Assembly: GCA_965214835.1 (NCBI GenBank) | Contig: CBDCCK010000002.1 | Span: 640,001-704,000, forward strand | Length of the DNA: 64,000 nucleotides | Reading direction: 5' to 3' | Source: Nitrosopumilaceae archaeon | GTDB taxonomy: Archaea > Thermoproteota > Nitrososphaeria > Nitrososphaerales > Nitrosopumilaceae | Shown here: positions 1 through 62,405 of the stretch, in pieces | Position numbering within the stretch: the first letter of the stretch is position 1 | Layout: each line of letters starts with the position of its first letter | Made by a program: the position numbers and the translations under genes | Notes under the pieces: generated by a model | Databases searched by the model: none | Told to the model about the DNA's origin: nothing | Seen by the model: only the letters and a program-made list of their open reading frames with translations

Positions 1-361
1 AAAAACACCCCCGCCGTAGTCAGGGTGATGGATCAACCCCTCGTTATGCATGTGCTTCGCGCACTATTTGTTGAATGGGGATATCCGAGCTGCTGTGTTC
101 CTGTGCTTCGCGCACTAATGGATGACTGCAGCTTCTGGTCCGTCAAGACCAGGAATGAAGGAAACCGCCTGCGGTGACTCACCTCCTGCCCCACCACCCA
201 CCCAATGATCTGGGAGGATATGGCATGACCGTACTGGGACAGGCAAGCGCGACTGCATCGTGCAACCAGCGTTAGCCATAAAGTGTGCCATGATCAGCTA
301 GGCATGGATCAGAAGAAGCTAGGGACATCGTCGTTTCTACGACGGATGTTTTTAACATAGA
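1..361 (+). mobile_element. Non-autonomous IS110/IS1111-family derivative (left and right non-coding ends joined, no transposase); left tip lies outside the window
   Basis: 1-145 is near-identical to the left end 37626-37770; 180-361 resembles the right end 38880-39057; subterminal IRs aaaaacacccccgccgtag / ctacgacggatgttttt. Confidence 0.85.
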
Positions 362-482
362 TATCGCCTAATTCGCCAGAATTCCCGAAAACCGCTGAGA
401 CGCTATGTGGATCAGGCGTGCAAAAATGGCGGAAATTCAAAAAAACGTACGGATCGAGTCGGGTAGGTGGAATTAGGCGACA
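362..482. mobile_element. MITE with IS481-like ends
   Basis: IRs tatcgcctaattc ... gaattaggcgaca (TGT...ACA-type termini, left end has one change). Confidence 0.6.
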
Positions 483-493
483 GCCCCCCCCCC

Positions 494-11542: not shown

Positions 11543-11726
11543 ATCAGTCGCACATGCTTTTATAATATCGCACGCGTCATATCTTGTTGGAAGAGTCCGA
11601 CATTTGCAAGTTGATGGACAATGCAAATATTCAACACATAAGAATGAAGGAATATCCTCCATCCTATAGCAACGAGCAGAAGTCTTTGAGCCAAAACAGG
11701 GTTCATTCGAAGAGTGCAATGATCGC

Positions 11727-12760
11727 ATAACCGGCAAGTGGGCATGGCAAAAGAAACAGACAGCCTGTCAGAGGCCATGCGCAAAGAAAAGGATGCAAGT
11801 CTGCAAAAAGATCATGGCGTTGATGTTTGTGCTAGAAGACGATGTGGGCGTGCCCGAGACCGCAAGAAGGGTTCCGGTGCAGTGAGAATTCCGTGCGCAA
11901 CTGGCTGGCGAGGTTCTCGGAGGACGGCATAGACGGCCTCCGGGATCTTCCCCGTTCCGGATGCAGGCCAAGGGTGGACGGAAAAAGGACTGCCGCCATA
12001 ATGGACTTGTCCATTGAATACAACAGTACCGACGTCATGACGGTGCGTGATGACATAAGGGATGCCACCTAGACAGGATACGGCACAGGAGATGTCCGAA
12101 GACTGATGCGCCGGCACGGCCTGTCGCGCTGCAAGGTGCAAAACGTACATGTCAACCATGCCGCCCCAAGCTCGGTATACGCATGGCAGTGGTATCTTGA
12201 AAACGTGCGTATTCCGTGCCTGAAAGACGGTTTTACGCTGGTGTCATCTGATGAGGCGTTCTTCGTGCAGGACGCACACGACAGATACGTATGGGGTCCG
12301 GTCGGCACCAGAGGCGTGGCCTCGTATTCGGGAGATCGCACAAAGGTGGCCGTGTTTGGAAGCATCGCAGAAGACGGCAGGAAGCTGTTCAGGACGCTTG
12401 CGGGAGCGCTTGCGTCGGTGCAGTCCATGGAATGTCCGGAGGCGCTGCGCGAAGTCTGGCAGGGTTGCAGTCCTTTGCGACAGGTGGAGCGTGCACGGAG
12501 CTGCTGCCGTCGCAGAATATCTGGCGGGCCATCCCGACGTCAGGCTGATAATGCTCCCAAAGGGATCGCCGTACCTCAATGTCGTGGAAGAATGCTGGAA
12601 CCTGGGCAAGCCTGTCGTTTTCAGGGGGATAGTGTACAGAAAGGTCGGTAAGCTGCGGCATGCCATATCCGAATATTACAGGACGGTGTCGTTTGCCCAC
12701 CTTTGCATGTACAAGTACATTTACAGATCGCCGGTCAAGGCCCTCAATTACTTGTGACCG
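11727..12760 (+). mobile_element. IS630-family element, multiply frameshifted
   Basis: GIDGLRDLPRSG, SDEAFF and SPYLNVVEECW motifs. Confidence 0.85.
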
Positions 12761-13559
12761 TTGCTATACCGATATGCCCGGCTTGCAAGAAAGGACAGCA
12801 TAGTGGCGCTTGGCAAATCAGATCTGGTCGAGCTGCAGGCCACACATCCCTTCAATGACAAAATAACCGAAAAATTCTTCCAGATGGACGAGTCAGCCAA
12901 AAACGGAATCGTGTATGAGTTGGAGCATACGCTGGTGGCTCTGGACATCAGGCACAAGATAATAACAAATGACAGCAAGCGGTTTTTCGGCTTTTCACTG
13001 TCTATATTTTTACGGGACGACGTATCCGCCGTTGACTTTCTCAATGCCTACAACAGAATCAAGGAGACAAGGGAGCTTGTAGGAATGCGGACTGCAAACC
13101 TTGTTCAGCGCCCCGCATGATACAGATATGGATGCTATGACACACATGAACGGTTCTGGAAGTAAACAACACCTCGGCAGCCTGATGAGCGCCAAGGACT
13201 TGGATGAGATCGACAAGCCGCCGGAACGGCCGATCTACTTCCTGGTGCCTGTCTTCATCACACTATCGAGCTACATCATACAATACGATGACGGTGCAAG
13301 CCCCTCCAAGGACGTCATACCATATGATAACGATACGAGCCCGCCGGATCTCTCAATCATCGAGTCAACAGAACATGTCAACGAATTCAAATTCAATGAC
13401 AGAGATGCCCGCAAAATGCTCTGTAGGCTCATAGGGCTCAAGGAAATTCCAAAACTTGACTCCAACGCATTCAAACAGCTCTCCGGCGTTATCGGAGACC
13501 AGATCGGAGACCAGGCCATCGATGCCGTAGATGCGGTTAGGACTATGAGGGACACGTAA
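12761..13559 (+). pseudogene. Two hypothetical ORFs (possibly one broken gene) upstream of the PIN gene
   Basis: ORFs 12761-13120 and 13101-13559; the second is translationally coupled (TAATG) to the PIN gene. Confidence 0.4.
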
Positions 13560-15257: not shown

Positions 15258-15394
15258 GATGTCCTTTGTGGCAGGCAGATATCTAAATGGTTTGGTTATG
15301 CCAAGGCAGGAGCTTGCCCCCTAAGCGAAGTTGCCTGCCATAGTCTTGATCACCATGCCCACCACGTCATATTTTCGGGGGAGGTAACTCTTAC

Positions 15395-15667
15395 GTTGCA
15401 CGATGCAGTCGCACTTGCCTTGTCCGGGTGCGGTCATGCCATATCCTCTCAGATCATTGAATGGGTGGTGGAGCAGGAGGTGAGTCACCGCAGGCGGTTT
15501 CTTTCCTCCCGGTCTTGATGGATCAGAAGCTGCAGTCATCCATCAGTGCGCTATGCACAGGAACACAGCAGCTCGGATTGCCCCATTCAACAGATAGTGC
15601 GCGAAGCACATGCATAGTGAGGGGTTGATCCATCACCATAACTACGGCAAGGATGTTTTTATGTGTT
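15395..15667 (-). mobile_element. Non-autonomous IS110 derivative, second copy; right end truncated by a MITE
   Basis: Reverse complement is highly similar to 1-266; begins TG|aacacataaaaacatcc. Confidence 0.85.
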
Positions 15668-15751
15668 CAACTACTGCCAACGAATTAGATTGGAGGTTAA
15701 CAAGAACCGTGCTTAATTTTATTGGATTAAAGGAAGGTCAGGCAGTATGGT

Positions 15752-21828: not shown

Positions 21829-22133
21829 CTGGGCAGATGGAAAACGACGAGCTTGGCGTACATGACGTGATAATTGGGCTGAGATCCACCATGCTCAGCT
21901 TTGAGAGCCTTCCACGGGAGGTGCAGGATGCCGTCGAGGCCGAGCTTGACAGGCTTGTAAGGATCAAACAGTAGTTGTAGTCGTCTTTTTCATAGTTTTC
22001 TTGATCGGTAAGGGGCAAGGCATTTCTTGGCTTTTCTCAAAATATTGGACGAACATAATTTCCGTATAAGACATCCATGGTAAAACGCCCGCCAGTAACA
22101 TGGCAACGTTCCTTTCGTCTTCTGATCCGTGCC

Positions 22134-22232
22134 TATACTGATGATCATTGAAAATTTCGCCTCCCTTACAAGCTGCGCTCAAGATACTTGTAGATGTCAA
22201 TCTTGATGGAGCACATCCTAAAGTATTCCGAG
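22134..22232 (-). mobile_element. IS630 right-end fragment
   Basis: Reverse complement of ~46835-46934. Confidence 0.85.
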
Positions 22233-37570: not shown

Positions 37571-37615
37571 GTGGCTGTGCTGGGATATAAAATCTGGGGG
37601 CGTCTTAGCCTGTTG

Positions 37616-39057
37616 AACACATGATAAAAACGCCCCCGCCGTAGCCAGGGTGATGGATCAACCCCTCGTTATGCATGTGCTTCGCGCACTACCTGTTGAA
37701 TGGGGATATCCGAGCTGCTGTGTTCCTGTGCTACGCGCACTGATGGATGAATGCAGCTTCTGATCTGTCAAACCATATCCGAAAGGAGGTGAAAGAAAAG
37801 GATTGAGAAGCATAGGAATAGACATTGGAAAGAGAAAATGCGGTGTGCGTCATCGACGCCAAGGGACACGTGCTAGAGGAGGGCTCGTATAACAACACGT
37901 ACAAGGAGGCATCAAAGCTTGCTGCACGACTGAAAAAAGAGTACAAAAAGTGCCAGGCCGCGTGCGAGTCAACGGGCAACATGTGGCTAAAGACGTTCAG
38001 GGCATTCGAGGATCAGCACATCCCCATACTGCTTGCAAACACCCTCAAGATGAAGATAGTATCAGAGACCAGCGTAAAGACTGACCCGATAGACGCAAGG
38101 AAGATAGCCGAAACGCTCAGGGCCGGAATGATACCACGATGCTACGTGGCATCAGCAGAGCTGAGGGATGTCAGGGAGCTGATGAGGTACAGGATACGGA
38201 TGGTGCAGGAGAGGACCGCAGTCATAAACGGGCTGCACAGCTTGGCTTGACAAGTACGACATAGCCATAGATGCATCCACGATGTACTCCAAGAAGGCCA
38301 TACGGAAGATCTCCGATACCAGGCTGAACATGCCAAACGATGACAGGATACTGGCAAGCTGCACCAGGAGGATTGCATCAGTTACAGAGGAGATAGGCCA
38401 GGCAGAGGAGGACATAGGAAGACAGGCAGGATCGAACGAGGATGCCAAGCTGCTGTTGAGCATGACGGGAATAGACGCCTTTGCAGCAATGCTGCTGATA
38501 GCAGAGATCGGTGACATAACCAGGTTTCCATCGCCGAACCAGCTTGTGTCCTGGGCCGGCATGTGTCCCCGGGTGTACCAGTCGGGGGACCGCGAGTACC
38601 ACGGCCGCATGAAAAAGGATGCAAACCGCAGGATCAACTGGCTGATGATCCAGATAGCCAACGTCGCCGTACAGCACGACGACAGGATGAAAGAGTTCTA
38701 CGAGAGGGTCCGCAAAAGGAACGGCAACAACCACGTCATAGCGATAACGCATGTTGCAAACAAGATGCTCAGGATAATCTGGCACATGCTGACGACAAAG
38801 ACTGCGTATTCATCGCGCAATGCTGCCCTGTACGACAAGAAGATCAAGAGGGTGACAGAACTGGCGGGAACGGCATAGGATTACCACCTTCCTCCCCCAC
38901 CCACCCACCCAATGATCCGCCCGCACCCTGGCAGGTGCGACAGGACTGGCTCGTGCGTATTGCTAGCGTTAGCTATAAAGCACAGCCCGGCCGACTAGGC
39001 ACGGATCAGAAGACGAAAGGAACGTTGCCATGTTACTGGCGGGCGTTTTACCATGGA
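37616..39057 (+). mobile_element. IS110/IS1111-family element between TG cores (37614-15 and 39058-59); DEDD recombinase 37803-38878 with two frameshifts
   Basis: IGIDIG, CEST, KTDPIDA and YQSG motifs; subterminal IR taaaaacgccc / gggcgtttta; RBS ggaggtga. Confidence 0.93.
37650..37765 (+). ncRNA. Predicted bridge RNA core (target-binding loop 37661-37705, donor-binding loop 37713-37758)
   Basis: Two internal loops with closing stems and apical gtgc/gcac hairpins; loop strands match the target and donor junction. RNA ends and transcription are not shown by the sequence. Confidence 0.85.
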
Positions 39058-39151
39058 TGCATAACCGTGCCTGAACGCGTAAAAACAGCCAGTTTTTCGT
39101 GCCTAAAATCGGGGTTGTGCAACAGGCTACCCAGTACCACCGGGCACTCCT

Positions 39152-45364: not shown

Positions 45365-45727
45365 CTTGCGACAGCCTTAGATGACCTGTGATCGGTAGCA
45401 CGGTGCCAGTACCACCATCCAGACTTGGAAACTTCCGATCGTATGAGGCAGTGTCTATCCTAGCCATTCGATCACTTGCATGCTGCCTACCGTAAGTTCT
45501 CAAATGACAAATTTTTCAGACCGAATCATATTTTGATCACCGTGTCTGACACAACGCATGACGGAGACGACATGGGAAGATCTGAAGAAGGCGTGCAAGG
45601 TGGAAAAGGATCCACATGTGATGGCCAAGATACCTGCAACAAACATGCTGTCCGAACCTCCAACGATGCATCACTGAGTTACTTCTGAACACGGGTTAAA
45701 ACGCCCGGGCCCGTAGCAGTGGTGACG

Positions 45728-45825
45728 TGGATCAACCGCTGTCTTCCCATGCGCCCCGCGCGCTGACTTCTGAATGCGGTAATTCCGAGCTGCAGTGTTC
45801 GTGCACCACGGCGTGCTGATAGATG
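45728..45825 (+). ncRNA. Second, reprogrammed bridge RNA core (truncated at the 3' side)
   Basis: Guides gtcttccca / acttctg and gtgttc / atagatg; compensatory stems accgc/gcggt and gcgc/gcgc. Confidence 0.8.
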
Positions 45826-45840
45826 GTACGAGGTCACCTA

Positions 45841-46932
45841 TACTGATGATCATTGAAAATTTCGCCTGATTACACATCTTGTAAAGGTTTATAGCTCCCC
45901 ACCATGTCACTCCCGGCATGAACAAGACGAAAATCCTCACGGATGCCATGCATGTCGAAAAGGATCTCAAGATTCACACCAGAATCATGGCGGTGCGCTC
46001 CGTGCTGCTTGGCAACACCACCGCACAGACTGCAGAGATTGCCGACGTGACACAGCGTACCGTACAGATGTGGATCGAGAGATTCGAGCTTGACGGCATC
46101 GACGGCCTCCGTGACTCCTAACAGGGACAAAAAACCAAAGGTTCCGGTCGGCAGGATAAAAAAGATCGCCACAAAGTTGCGTAGGATGGAAAAGCTCACC
46201 CCGAAGAAGCTGTGCAACCGGGTGCGCCGCAGGCTGCATGTCACATACAGCGTGGGAAGCATCAGAAGAATCCTGCGCACGATGGGATTCTCGCCAAAGA
46301 CGTCAACCACCAGGCTTGCAGATGCTGCCGACGCAAAGGCGGTAAGACGGTGGCAGGGGGCGGCAAGAACCGCGATCAAGCTTGCAAAAAGGCGCGGATT
46401 TAGGATAGCCGTACAGGACGAGTCGATATTCGTCAGTACGGGAAGGGACGGCAGAAAGTTCTGGTCGCCCGTGGGGGACAGGATCGAGGTGCAACGATCC
46501 GGCAGAAGGGAACGCGTCGCGGTATACGGAACGATTGCAGACGACGGAACCCGGCTGATGCGCACATACGACAAGTTCAACAGCGCAAACTTTGTGCATT
46601 ATCTCAAGCAGGTGCACAAAAAGCGGGGAAAGGTTCTGATTGTGATGGACAACGCAGCACAGCACAAGACCGGAAAGGTCCGCAGGTACCTGAAGAAAAA
46701 TCCAGACGTCGTCCTGCTGTACCTGCCGGTAGCCAGGCCGGAGCTGAGCGTCATAGAGGCAGTCTGGAAGGATGCCAAGTACGGGCCGGTCACGTCGGCA
46801 TTTTACGAGACGGTAGATCACCTCAAAAGGGCCGTCTCGGAATACTTTAGGACGTGTTCCATCAAGGTTGACATCTATAGGTACCTTGAGCGCAGCTTGT
46901 AAGGGAGGCGAAATTTTCAATGGTCATCAGTA
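45841..46932 (+). mobile_element. IS630-family element; transposase 45918-46902 in two frames
   Basis: TA duplication; IR tactgatga.cattgaaaatttcgcct; QDES, MDNA and PELSVIE motifs. Confidence 0.93.
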
Positions 46933-62317: not shown

Positions 62318-62405
62318 GGTGCGTTTACCTAGCACGGTAAGGTGTCGCCCTGAAAGGCGATTGTTCTCGGAAGGAACATCGTGGGTTCGACTCCCACACT
62401 CACCG
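62318..62405 (+). tRNA. tRNA-Ser-like gene with a 6-nt anticodon loop (possibly a pseudogene)
   Basis: Cloverleaf: D stem acct/aggt, AC stem tcgcc/ggcga, long variable arm, T arm gtggg-ttcgact-cccac, G discriminator, T-rich tail. Confidence 0.8.

Follow-up and report, generated by a model that had tools for sequence, protein, structure and literature searches.

Two copies of a short element without a recombinase gene lie in the DNA analysed here, a 64,000-nucleotide (nt) stretch of the genome of a Nitrosopumilaceae archaeon (the window; its position 1 is C2:640001, that is, on contig C2, of genome G000). The first copy, m1, starts 10 nt before window position 1, at G000:C2:639991, which puts its left junction outside the window. 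The second, m5, holds element positions 1 to 273 of about 371; its right-end hairpin and terminus are missing, and the end of another repeat abuts its cut edge at 15394/15395. BLAST aligned window positions 1-361 with 15395-15660 on the minus strand, as inverted repeats, at 89.5% identity over 267 nt (E 7.5e-97). An earlier note, made from the letters of the window, had described the two stretches as copies of a transposase-free MITE (a miniature transposable element with inverted repeats) that carries a bridge RNA, and both stretches exist as it described them. The features discussed are as follows.

Window 1-361, forward strand: mini-element m1 (copy 1); whole element at G000:C2:639991-640361
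Window 22-150, forward strand: bridge-RNA-like core of m1, a covariance-model match of 158.3 bits
Window 26-35, pairing with 136-145: outer stem of m1
Window 43-50, 52-64 and 67-75: putative target-binding loop 1 of m1 (in turn 5' guide GTTATGCA, cap hairpin, 3' guide TTTGT-TG-AA)
Window 95-100, 103-115 and 118-126: putative donor-binding loop 2 of m1 (in turn 5' guide GTGTTC, cap hairpin, 3' guide ATGGA-TG-AC)
Window 161-180, forward strand: deletion junction of m1 (the linker of the earlier note), the 20-nt GAAACCGCCTGCGGTGACTC
Window 171-230, forward strand: best-conserved internal stretch of m1, the C-rich tract CCCCACCACCCACCCAATGAT and its neighbours
Window 328-361, forward strand: right end of m1, with hairpin TCGTCG/CGACGG, a T5 run, the terminus AACATAGA and the donor left half ATAGA
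Window 362-488, forward strand: right flank of m1, with TA where other copies have TG, then a complete element of about 113 bp with terminal inverted repeats (TCGCCTAATTC...GAATTAGGCGA)
Window 15395-15667, reverse strand: partial mini-element m5 (copy 2); bridge-RNA core at 15511-15639
Window 15668-15676, reverse strand: left junction of m5, with the TG core at 15668-15669 and the left target half CAGTAGT at 15670-15676
Window 37616-39057, forward strand: element A, a full-length relative of 1.44 kb with right end CCATGGA and TG cores at 37614-37615 and 39058-39059

From left to right, m1 consists of a left end with the putative bridge-RNA gene, the deletion junction, sequence of the kind that follows a recombinase stop codon, the right-end hairpin and the terminus. 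There are exactly two occurrences of the junction tract GAAACCGCCTGCGGTGACTC in the window (161-180, forward; 15482-15501, reverse), versus 0 in 100 shuffles; its right part corresponds to what immediately follows the stop codon of the recombinase gene in a full-length relative. The claim that both copies join a complete left end to the right end through the same linker stands for the linker, while the right end of copy 2 is incomplete. That the copies are transposase-free was borne out: the longest stop-to-stop frame in the short element is 86 codons, there is no open reading frame (ORF) above that, and tblastn with the intact recombinase of a relative found no recombinase similarity at the m1 and m5 loci. 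Complete short copies are 365-376 bp long. Their ends show only an imperfect sub-terminal inverted repeat (ATGATAAAAACAC versus GTGTTTTTAACAT, predicted to pair), the right-end sub-terminal sequence being complementary to ATGATAAAAACA of the left end, and a 2-nt TG core at both junctions, a repeat that is not a classical target-site duplication. Joined, the two ends would read ...AACATAGA-TG-AACACATG.... Some 25 nt upstream of the outer stem there is an A/T-rich box, ATGATAAAAAC, and a hairpin with a T5 run directly precedes the right terminus; as putative archaeal promoter and terminator features, the two would make a compact transcription unit of the short element.

The C-rich stretch beside the junction is the best-conserved internal part of the element, with a mean pairwise difference of 0.07-0.10 versus 0.13-0.19 elsewhere, and over 37 nt stretch 171-230 and the right end of a full-length element in the congener G004 are 97% identical; the left end of that G004 element is only about 75% identical to the short copies. 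In m1 (window 150-200) and all other short copies a hairpin is predicted across the deletion junction, in which CACCTCC just past the stop codon pairs with a stretch of the GGAGG type that derives from the recombinase leader; in full-length elements these two stretches lie about 1.1 kb apart. The 3' strand of the outer stem, CTTCTGGTCCGT (131-146 in m1), is also complementary to ATGGATCAGAAG of the right end (305-318), and likewise in element A, so that the two could instead pair at long range if a transcript reads through, or form an inverted repeat at the DNA level.

The left end is predicted to encode a two-loop RNA. The structure tested on 15 sequences from four genomes has five helices, namely an outer stem of 10 bp, two stem-loops and a pair of cap hairpins; of 405 cells, 97.5% were paired, compared with 27-52% when the partners were slid, and 4 of 27 pairs had changed on both sides in a compensatory way, a number reached by 2 of 500 shuffles. 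These data lend modest support to a conserved RNA fold with covariation, the 15 sequences being close relatives. The loop 1 guides are GTTATGCA and TATTTGTTGAA in copy 1 and ACTATGCA and TATCTGTTGAA in copy 2, so the guides quoted in the earlier note are present in both. A covariance model built from the 15-sequence alignment found 24 loci in the genome: 11 full-length elements (A-K, see below), 3 members of a distant and also broken subfamily, 6 short copies and 4 solitary left-end fragments. Ten of these 24 guide-RNA-like loci have no recombinase gene. Rfam 15, which may or may not hold a bridge-RNA model, gave no match on the window at gathering score, and a further search at E up to 10 gave nothing relevant.

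The recombinase gene missing from the short copies is present in their full-length relatives. BLAST of the whole genome (3.22 Mb, 2 contigs) identified 11 elements with a left end and a recombinase gene, A-K, plus several end fragments. Elements A-H are about 98% identical to A, I is 93% and J 85% identical, and K is decayed. The first ~150 nt of the two window copies are 87-94% identical to the left end of element A, and the left ends of the short copies are about 90% identical to those of A-K. In element A the recombinase gene is split by a 1-nt insertion into ORFs at 37825-38250 and 38282-38878, which match PF01548 (DEDD_Tnp_IS110; 1.9e-23) and PF02371 (Transposase_20; 3.4e-27). This pair of domains, the feature of an IS110-family recombinase, is found only in the full-length relatives and is absent from the short element, which therefore appears to be a derivative and not an autonomous member of the IS110 family. 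Only one of the 11 related recombinase genes, that of copy J (C2:513383-514459), is uninterrupted. The other ten (A-I and K) share one extra G (CACAGCTTGGCTTGAC, ...HSLA-stop; 38236-38250 in A) that splits the DEDD domain from the Transposase_20 domain, where J reads through (...HSLLDKYDI...). Because A-H are about 98% identical, they must have multiplied while carrying this break, which suggests that the enzyme acted in trans, that the frameshift is recoded at GCT-TGA-C, or that the enzyme works in two pieces. A solitary right-end fragment lies at window 22072-22135 on the reverse strand; its 64 nt are 100% identical to the last 64 nt of A and are followed by TG.

Empty sites define the core at which these elements insert. 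Among 13 uninterrupted relatives of A's right flank, 10 read TAGC(C/T)TGT-TG-CA(T/C)AACC and 3 deviate. Empty sites read TAGCCTGT-TG-CATAACC and occupied ones TAGCCTGT-TG-(AACACATGAT...CCATGGA)-TG-CATAACC, from which it follows that the core is TG and that the element runs from AACAC to ...GGA or ...AGA. The core thus differs from that of the IS110-family element IS621, which is CT. With these boundaries, the 3' side of loop 1 reads as the left flank followed by the core and the first two bases of the element (CCTGT-TG-AA in A), and its 5' side (GTTATGCA) is the reverse complement of TG-CATAAC; the 3' side of loop 2 reads as the right terminus, then the core, then the left terminus (ATGGA-TG-AA), and its 5' side, GTGTTC, is the reverse complement of GAACAC. 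The predicted RNA therefore appears to have both the target-matching and the donor-matching loop of a bridge RNA. At least three target classes, each with a matching guide programme, are present in this one genome, and the insertion points of the IS110-type elements lie a few bases inward from the ends of other repeats or insertion sequences (ISs). The programmes, given as left and right target halves, are listed below; by our own arithmetic, about 0.1 occurrences of a random 13-mer are expected on both strands of 3.2 Mb.

CCTGT / CATAAC, in A-E, G and H: end of a ~60-bp repeat; 4 exact unoccupied 13-nt sites
TTTGT / CATAAC, in F and m1: uninterrupted TAGTTTGT-TG-CATAAC sites; 9 exact unoccupied sites
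GTAGT / AAAATG, in I and J, with a near match in f5: CAGTAGT-TG-AAAATGTACCCC, the terminal repeat of a ~1.36-kb IS; 23 exact unoccupied sites
GAGGT / TCGCGT, in m2, with the 5' half in f4: GGGGT-TG-TCGCCTAATTC, the end of the ~113-bp inverted-repeat element (113 motif matches); 2 exact unoccupied sites
ACTTC-TG, in the second subfamily: flanks tACTTC-TG

The loop 1 guides of the I/J type are GTAGT and CATTTTCA, and for the programmes of m3-m6 the genome offers 0 exact sites. Small repeat families crowd this genome, also within the window (364-488, 463-480 and other positions): CGCCTAATTC, the terminal motif of the ~113-bp family, has 113 matches, a ~420-bp repeat occurs in about 25 copies, and the 1.36-kb IS with CAGTAGTTGAAAATGTACCCC ends in 10 or more. 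On the donor side, the loop 2 guide and the right terminus covary through three states: ATGGA (A-K), ATAGA (the G004 full-length element) and ATAGG (G010). Six of the seven short copies that retain a terminus end in ATAGA (m1-m4 and, in the congener G002, G2b and G2c; G2a is unclear), and the donor guides of the short copies read ATAGA in m2 and m6, GTAGA in m4 and G2a, and ATGGA in m1, m5, G2b and G2c, that of m3 being decayed. An ATGGA guide, as in m1, would meet an ATAGA end through one G-T pair.

We scored how well each copy's guides fit its own flanks. On the left side, 19 copies have a readable 3' guide; nine fit at 5/5 (A, B, C, D, H, I, J, m1 and m4), four at 4/5 (E, G, m2 and f2) and six at 3 or fewer (F, m3, m5, m6, f1 and f4). 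On the right side, nine of ten full-length copies fit at 6/6 (I does not), and the short copies with a terminus fit at 0/6 (m1), 4/6 (m2), 1/6 (m3) and 3/6 (m4). Both sides are exact in 6 of 10 full-length copies, compared with 0 of the 4 short copies that have both ends.

A left end of the second subfamily stands alone at window 45688-45844 on the forward strand, with a bridge-RNA-like fold (46 bits, E 8.4e-9 with the covariance model) and no recombinase gene after it; its loop 1 guide, ACTTC-TG-AA, matches its own left flank, tACTTC-TG. Left-end fragments of different subfamilies at 45818-45835 and at G000:C2:504086-504100 (f4) end at an identical point, immediately past the ATAGA/ATGGA-TG that codes for the donor guide. 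There both are joined to GTACGAG..., with which a different repeat family terminates (its TGGTACGAG motif has 26 matches in the genome). The DNA that encodes the donor guide resembles a right end and may itself be able to serve as a recombination site.

The earlier note had proposed that the deleted form itself had multiplied and had suggested searching the genome for further copies. The search found four more copies with the same junction and a right-end fragment, bringing the genome total to six short copies sharing the deletion junction plus one fragment. The statement that the element is present in two copies therefore holds within the window and not for the genome. The copies besides m1 are as follows.

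C2:2955618-2955986: short copy m2
C2:3124156-3124520: short copy m3
C2:2139579-2139945: short copy m4
C2:655395-655667: m5, identical with window 15395-15667
C2:10110-10408: short copy m6, right terminus missing
C2:635584-635702: right-end fragment of the short element

When relatives were sought in 31 genomes, the source genome included, the congener G002 (76% complete) yielded three complete short copies (G2a, G2b and G2c) and one right-end half. One deletion junction is present in all nine junction-bearing copies (6/6 here and the 3/3 complete copies in G002), and the left flanks of the six copies here are unrelated upstream of the 7-8-nt target half. Because a single junction is shared by nine copies of two species at sites with unrelated left flanks, we conclude that the deleted form itself multiplied, as the earlier note held for its two copies. 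The flanks of the G002 copies map elsewhere in G000, with the exception of the left junction of G2c, which is orthologous to fragment f3 (C2:1869273-1869471; 83% identical), implying that at least one insertion is older than the split of the two species. The nine short copies are 81-91% identical pairwise, and their left-end tree is star-like, which places the multiplication long ago; m1 sits nearly at the family node (branch 0.013), and the left end of m5 lies about 0.05 changes per site from it. That tree (17 rows, 10 of 14 inner branches unsupported) does not resolve the short copies as a single clade. The short element is MITE-like in being small, non-coding, present at several unrelated loci, and derived from an IS present in the genome.

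The two window copies could in principle owe their existence to segmental duplication and not to transposition. The last 119 nt of m1 together with 340 nt of its flank are 97% identical to C2:635584-636043, and m1, m3 and G2b share the adjacent variant of the 113-bp repeat. Against this, m1 and m5 share nothing outside the element, which contradicts duplication for this pair, the six left flanks differ upstream of the 7-8-nt target half, and the copies sit at recognizable target classes with a TG core. The earlier note had named alteration of the flanks after insertion as evidence against its proposal; this applies to the right side of m1 alone, where the shared block points to rearrangement. 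We regard duplication of the pair as very improbable.

We consider it likely that the short copies form a family of non-autonomous, MITE-like internal-deletion derivatives of an IS110-family bridge-RNA IS, moved in trans. One ancestral deletion would have removed essentially only the recombinase ORF, leaving the left end (the bridge-RNA gene and the right donor half AACACA), about 190 nt past the stop codon, and the right terminus (ATAGA and the TG core). A recombinase supplied by full-length relatives would then have copied the short element to new sites. The ends would be joined at the TG core into a circular donor, loop 2 would pair with the joined ends (ATAGA/ATGGA-TG-AACAC), loop 1 would pair with a target of 13 nt (5 nt, TG, 6 nt), as a rule the end of some other repeat or IS, and the recombinase would exchange strands at TG. 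The guide RNA would be diffusible, coming from the short element itself or from any copy with a fitting loop 2. The TG-joined circle, the recognition by loops 2 and 1 and the use of a full-length enzyme are inferred from work on IS621 and by analogy with MITEPpu9. For IS621, the bridge RNA is reported to work in trans with a 22-bp donor (PMC11208160), and excision to use both loops across the junctions (PMC13626964); half-matched substrates are described as able to react (bioRxiv 10.64898/2026.08.31.748434), and MITEPpu9, an IS110-family MITE-like element, as excising in the form of a minicircle (PMC12288879).

Several observations weigh against this interpretation. With J the only intact recombinase among 11, the present-day source of enzyme is uncertain. 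By BLAST, no full-length parent with the ATAGA right-end type of the short element was found in the genome. The G002 contig that carries the right-end half (C17) has no recombinase upstream, and an exact International Union of Pure and Applied Chemistry (IUPAC) pattern across the junction-side tract matched only two G002 contigs among the genome contigs and nothing in metagenome contigs, such exact-pattern scans missing diverged copies. The bridge-RNA part (0.13-0.17 differences per site) is no better conserved than the rest of the element (0.07-0.19; 0.03-0.09 in the right-end hairpin and terminus), which gives no sign of selection on the RNA within the short family. Mismatch between guides and flanks is general in the short copies, and drift and rearrangement appear to explain part of it. 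The shared right flank of m1, m3 and G2b means that not all copies are clean, independent insertions. Finally, the 81-91% identity, the star-like tree and the truncation of two of six copies (m5 and m6) suggest that the family may be extinct.

The flanks of the two window copies bear on how the insertions were guided. The flanks quoted in the earlier note were read correctly: positions 15668-15676 hold ca+actactg, which reads cagtagt-TG on the opposite strand, and from 362 on the sequence is tatcgcc. The accompanying statement that they do not fit the copies' own loop 1 holds for these visible flanks; beyond the window edge, the left flank of m1, TAGTTTGT-TG, fits its own guide TTTGT-TG-AA at 5/5. 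Of this left flank, 41 nt are paralogous to C2:1909307-1909346, with 1 difference as counted from the alignment, and the paralogous site continues uninterrupted with CATAACC, giving the full m1 programme. Assignment of TAGTTT to the element was rejected, as uninterrupted TAGTTTGT-TG-CATAAC sites exist. On the right side of m1, the same 113-bp repeat variant also follows m3, G2b and the fragment at C2:635584, and this common flank block points to a later rearrangement as the cause of the mismatch. The short element and the 113-bp repeat may also move together as a composite; the three loci are compatible with this and do not show it. DNA contigs of public runs (X1, X2, X3 and X5) on C2:639001-656500 break at repeats, and among the pieces listed none spans m1; other copies of the 113-bp repeat account for joints like that from 942 to 1408 of the stretch. 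One X3 contig covers 15181-16502 of the stretch with 0 differences, including the truncated edge of m5.

The left junction of m5 lies in another kind of site. It equals the first 9 nt of the terminal repeat of the ~1.36-kb IS, and CAGTAGT-TG is the exact target of the I/J guide GTAGT-TG-AA, while the guides of m5 itself, TCTGT / CATAGT, have no exact site in the genome. The earlier note had suggested looking for a bridge RNA whose loop 1 matches the flanks, and the I/J loop 1, at 5/5, is such a match for the left flank of m5. These observations raise the possibility, which we judge to be evenly balanced, that at least m5 was placed by an I/J-type bridge RNA (GTAGT-TG / AAAATG) and that recombinase-less copies add their guides to a shared pool. 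The fit of m5's own TCTGT to its flank is 2/5 (the constant GT only), and the flank belongs to the site class used by I, J, K and f5, of which 23 exact sites are free. At only about 0.05 changes per site, the left end of m5 is too close to the family node for point mutation to have rewritten both guide halves. The I/J loop 2 ATGGA would pair with an ATAGA end via one G-T wobble, bridge RNA is reported to act in trans in E. coli (PMC11208160), and guidance of m5 by I/J needs no extra event, making it the simplest account.

Two other processes predict the same flank pattern for m5: gene conversion that replaced loop 1 after insertion, which does so equally, and a crossover in the first ~50 nt that swapped flanks. 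Loop halves do look shuffled, m3 combining a P1-like 5' half with a P2-like 3' half and f4 a P3 5' half with the 3' half of m4/m5, so that exchange between copies seems to occur. Moreover, the right junction of m5 is lost, leaving a single half-site for the comparison. The proposal in the earlier note that these are non-autonomous cassettes mobilized in trans is well supported, and its suggestion that they are guided by another copy's RNA is the simplest account for m5 only. For its further idea of a reservoir of guides for a shared recombinase there is one hint: the right target guide (RTG) ACGCGACA is found only on the recombinase-less copies m2 and f4, and its TG-TCGCGT fits the 113-bp repeat end TG-TCGCCT at 5/6.

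The mismatches may also have a simpler origin. The family may have stopped moving long ago and its RNAs may be unused, with the mismatches reflecting drift, gene conversion, deletions and insertions of other repeats, an explanation that is compatible with mobilization in trans and to which we give a little less than an even chance. The divergence of the copies (81-91% identity) is fairly even along the bridge-RNA part, the insertion shared by G2c and f3 predates the species split, truncation has affected m5 and m6, and the core of m1 reads TA. Own-guide fit on both sides is confined to young full-length copies (6/10 versus 0/4), m3-m6 have programmes with no exact genomic site, and the ends of other repeats abut m5, f4, f7 and the fragment at window 45721-45844. 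Such inactivity is harder to reconcile with m1, which is close to the family node, has an intact fold and carries a programme with 9 exact free sites, or with the 2 exact free sites of the m2 programme. By our own estimate, drift of ~6-7% per copy would change ~1-2 of 11 positions, and the mismatches of m1 (0/6 on the right), m3 and m5 exceed this; the full-length relatives, moreover, amplified recently (~98% identity), which implies that active enzyme was present until fairly recent times.

A bolder and rather unlikely extension of the trans-mobilization model is that the short element parasitizes the recombinase under its own guidance and serves as a mobile store for target programmes. Every copy would transcribe a bridge RNA of its own, from a promoter within the left end to a terminator in the T-run of the right end; the RNA would be loaded onto the enzyme of full-length copies, most of them frameshifted; and the pooled RNAs would direct short and full-length elements alike to the ends of three or more other repeat or IS families, with guide halves exchanged between copies across the constant cap hairpin. 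If so, guide genes, and not the enzyme gene, would be the unit that diversifies and spreads in this archaeal lineage.

Two further observations in the window concern unrelated features. Contigs of public runs X1, X2 and X3 skip 1102 nt at window 11665-12766, with ends TA..TA, joining position 12664 of the compared stretch to 13767, a presence/absence difference of an unrelated element of ~1.1 kb. A tRNA match lies at window 62318-62405 on the forward strand (39.4 bits); it is 88 nt long versus a model of 71 positions, a surplus that an intron of the kind found in archaeal tRNA genes would explain.

Comparison with known systems places the family closest to the IS110 group. The full-length relatives described here resemble IS621 and the IS110-group elements (Durrant et al. 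2024, PMC11208160; Hiraizumi et al. 2024, PMC11208158, and 2026, PMC13626964) in having a DEDD and Transposase_20 recombinase, a non-coding RNA gene in the left end with two internal loops, one matching the target and the other the joined donor ends, a core dinucleotide shared by donor and target, repeated elements as targets, and 3' guides that, like handshake guides, have two extra bases past the core. They differ from IS621 in the 10-bp outer stem around the two stem-loops and in the archaeal host, to which a sigma-70 junction promoter cannot apply; the short element, in addition, has no recombinase. The long right non-coding end (~180 nt) and the 11-14-nt sub-terminal inverted repeat recall the IS1111 group, as outlined in PMC11208160.

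MITEPpu9 of Pseudomonas putida KT2440 is likewise a recombinase-less module bounded by IS110-family ends, with a small-RNA gene, several copies, some of them unlinked to an IS, and an enzyme proposed to act in trans (PMC12288879). Its cargo, ssr9, is there described as dispensable for transposition and complementary to another small RNA, and not as a guide RNA; the cargo here, in contrast, is a putative two-loop guide RNA, each copy has its own target guides, and the element arose by simple deletion of the ORF. Compact IS110 elements that have a recombinase and no 5' untranslated region (bioRxiv 10.64898/2026.08.14.744561) imply that guide RNA and enzyme can be separated by locus; they are the mirror image of the present family, an enzyme without an RNA gene as opposed to an RNA gene without an enzyme. 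Like classical prokaryotic MITEs, as characterized in a review (PMC10969869), the short element is small, non-coding, multicopy, derived by internal deletion from an IS and probably moved in trans. Unlike in those, its donor would be recognized by RNA-DNA pairing and not by protein on terminal inverted repeats, it has no target-site duplication beyond the 2-nt core, and it carries a specificity determinant for its own, and possibly others', insertion. Within the literature searched, which included MITEPpu9 and the enzyme-only compact elements, no description of a family of guide-RNA-only IS110 derivatives was found.

Bridge recombinases are being turned into tools for programmable genome editing, and research into how they behave in nature is still under way. 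The family described here would be a natural case, in archaea and in two species, in which the RNA gene and the ends of an IS110 element were parted from the enzyme gene and still multiplied. It offers natural guide variants with known target classes, as well as a natural G-T wobble at the donor guide, and would be a test bed for the sharing of guides among IS110 elements within one cell.

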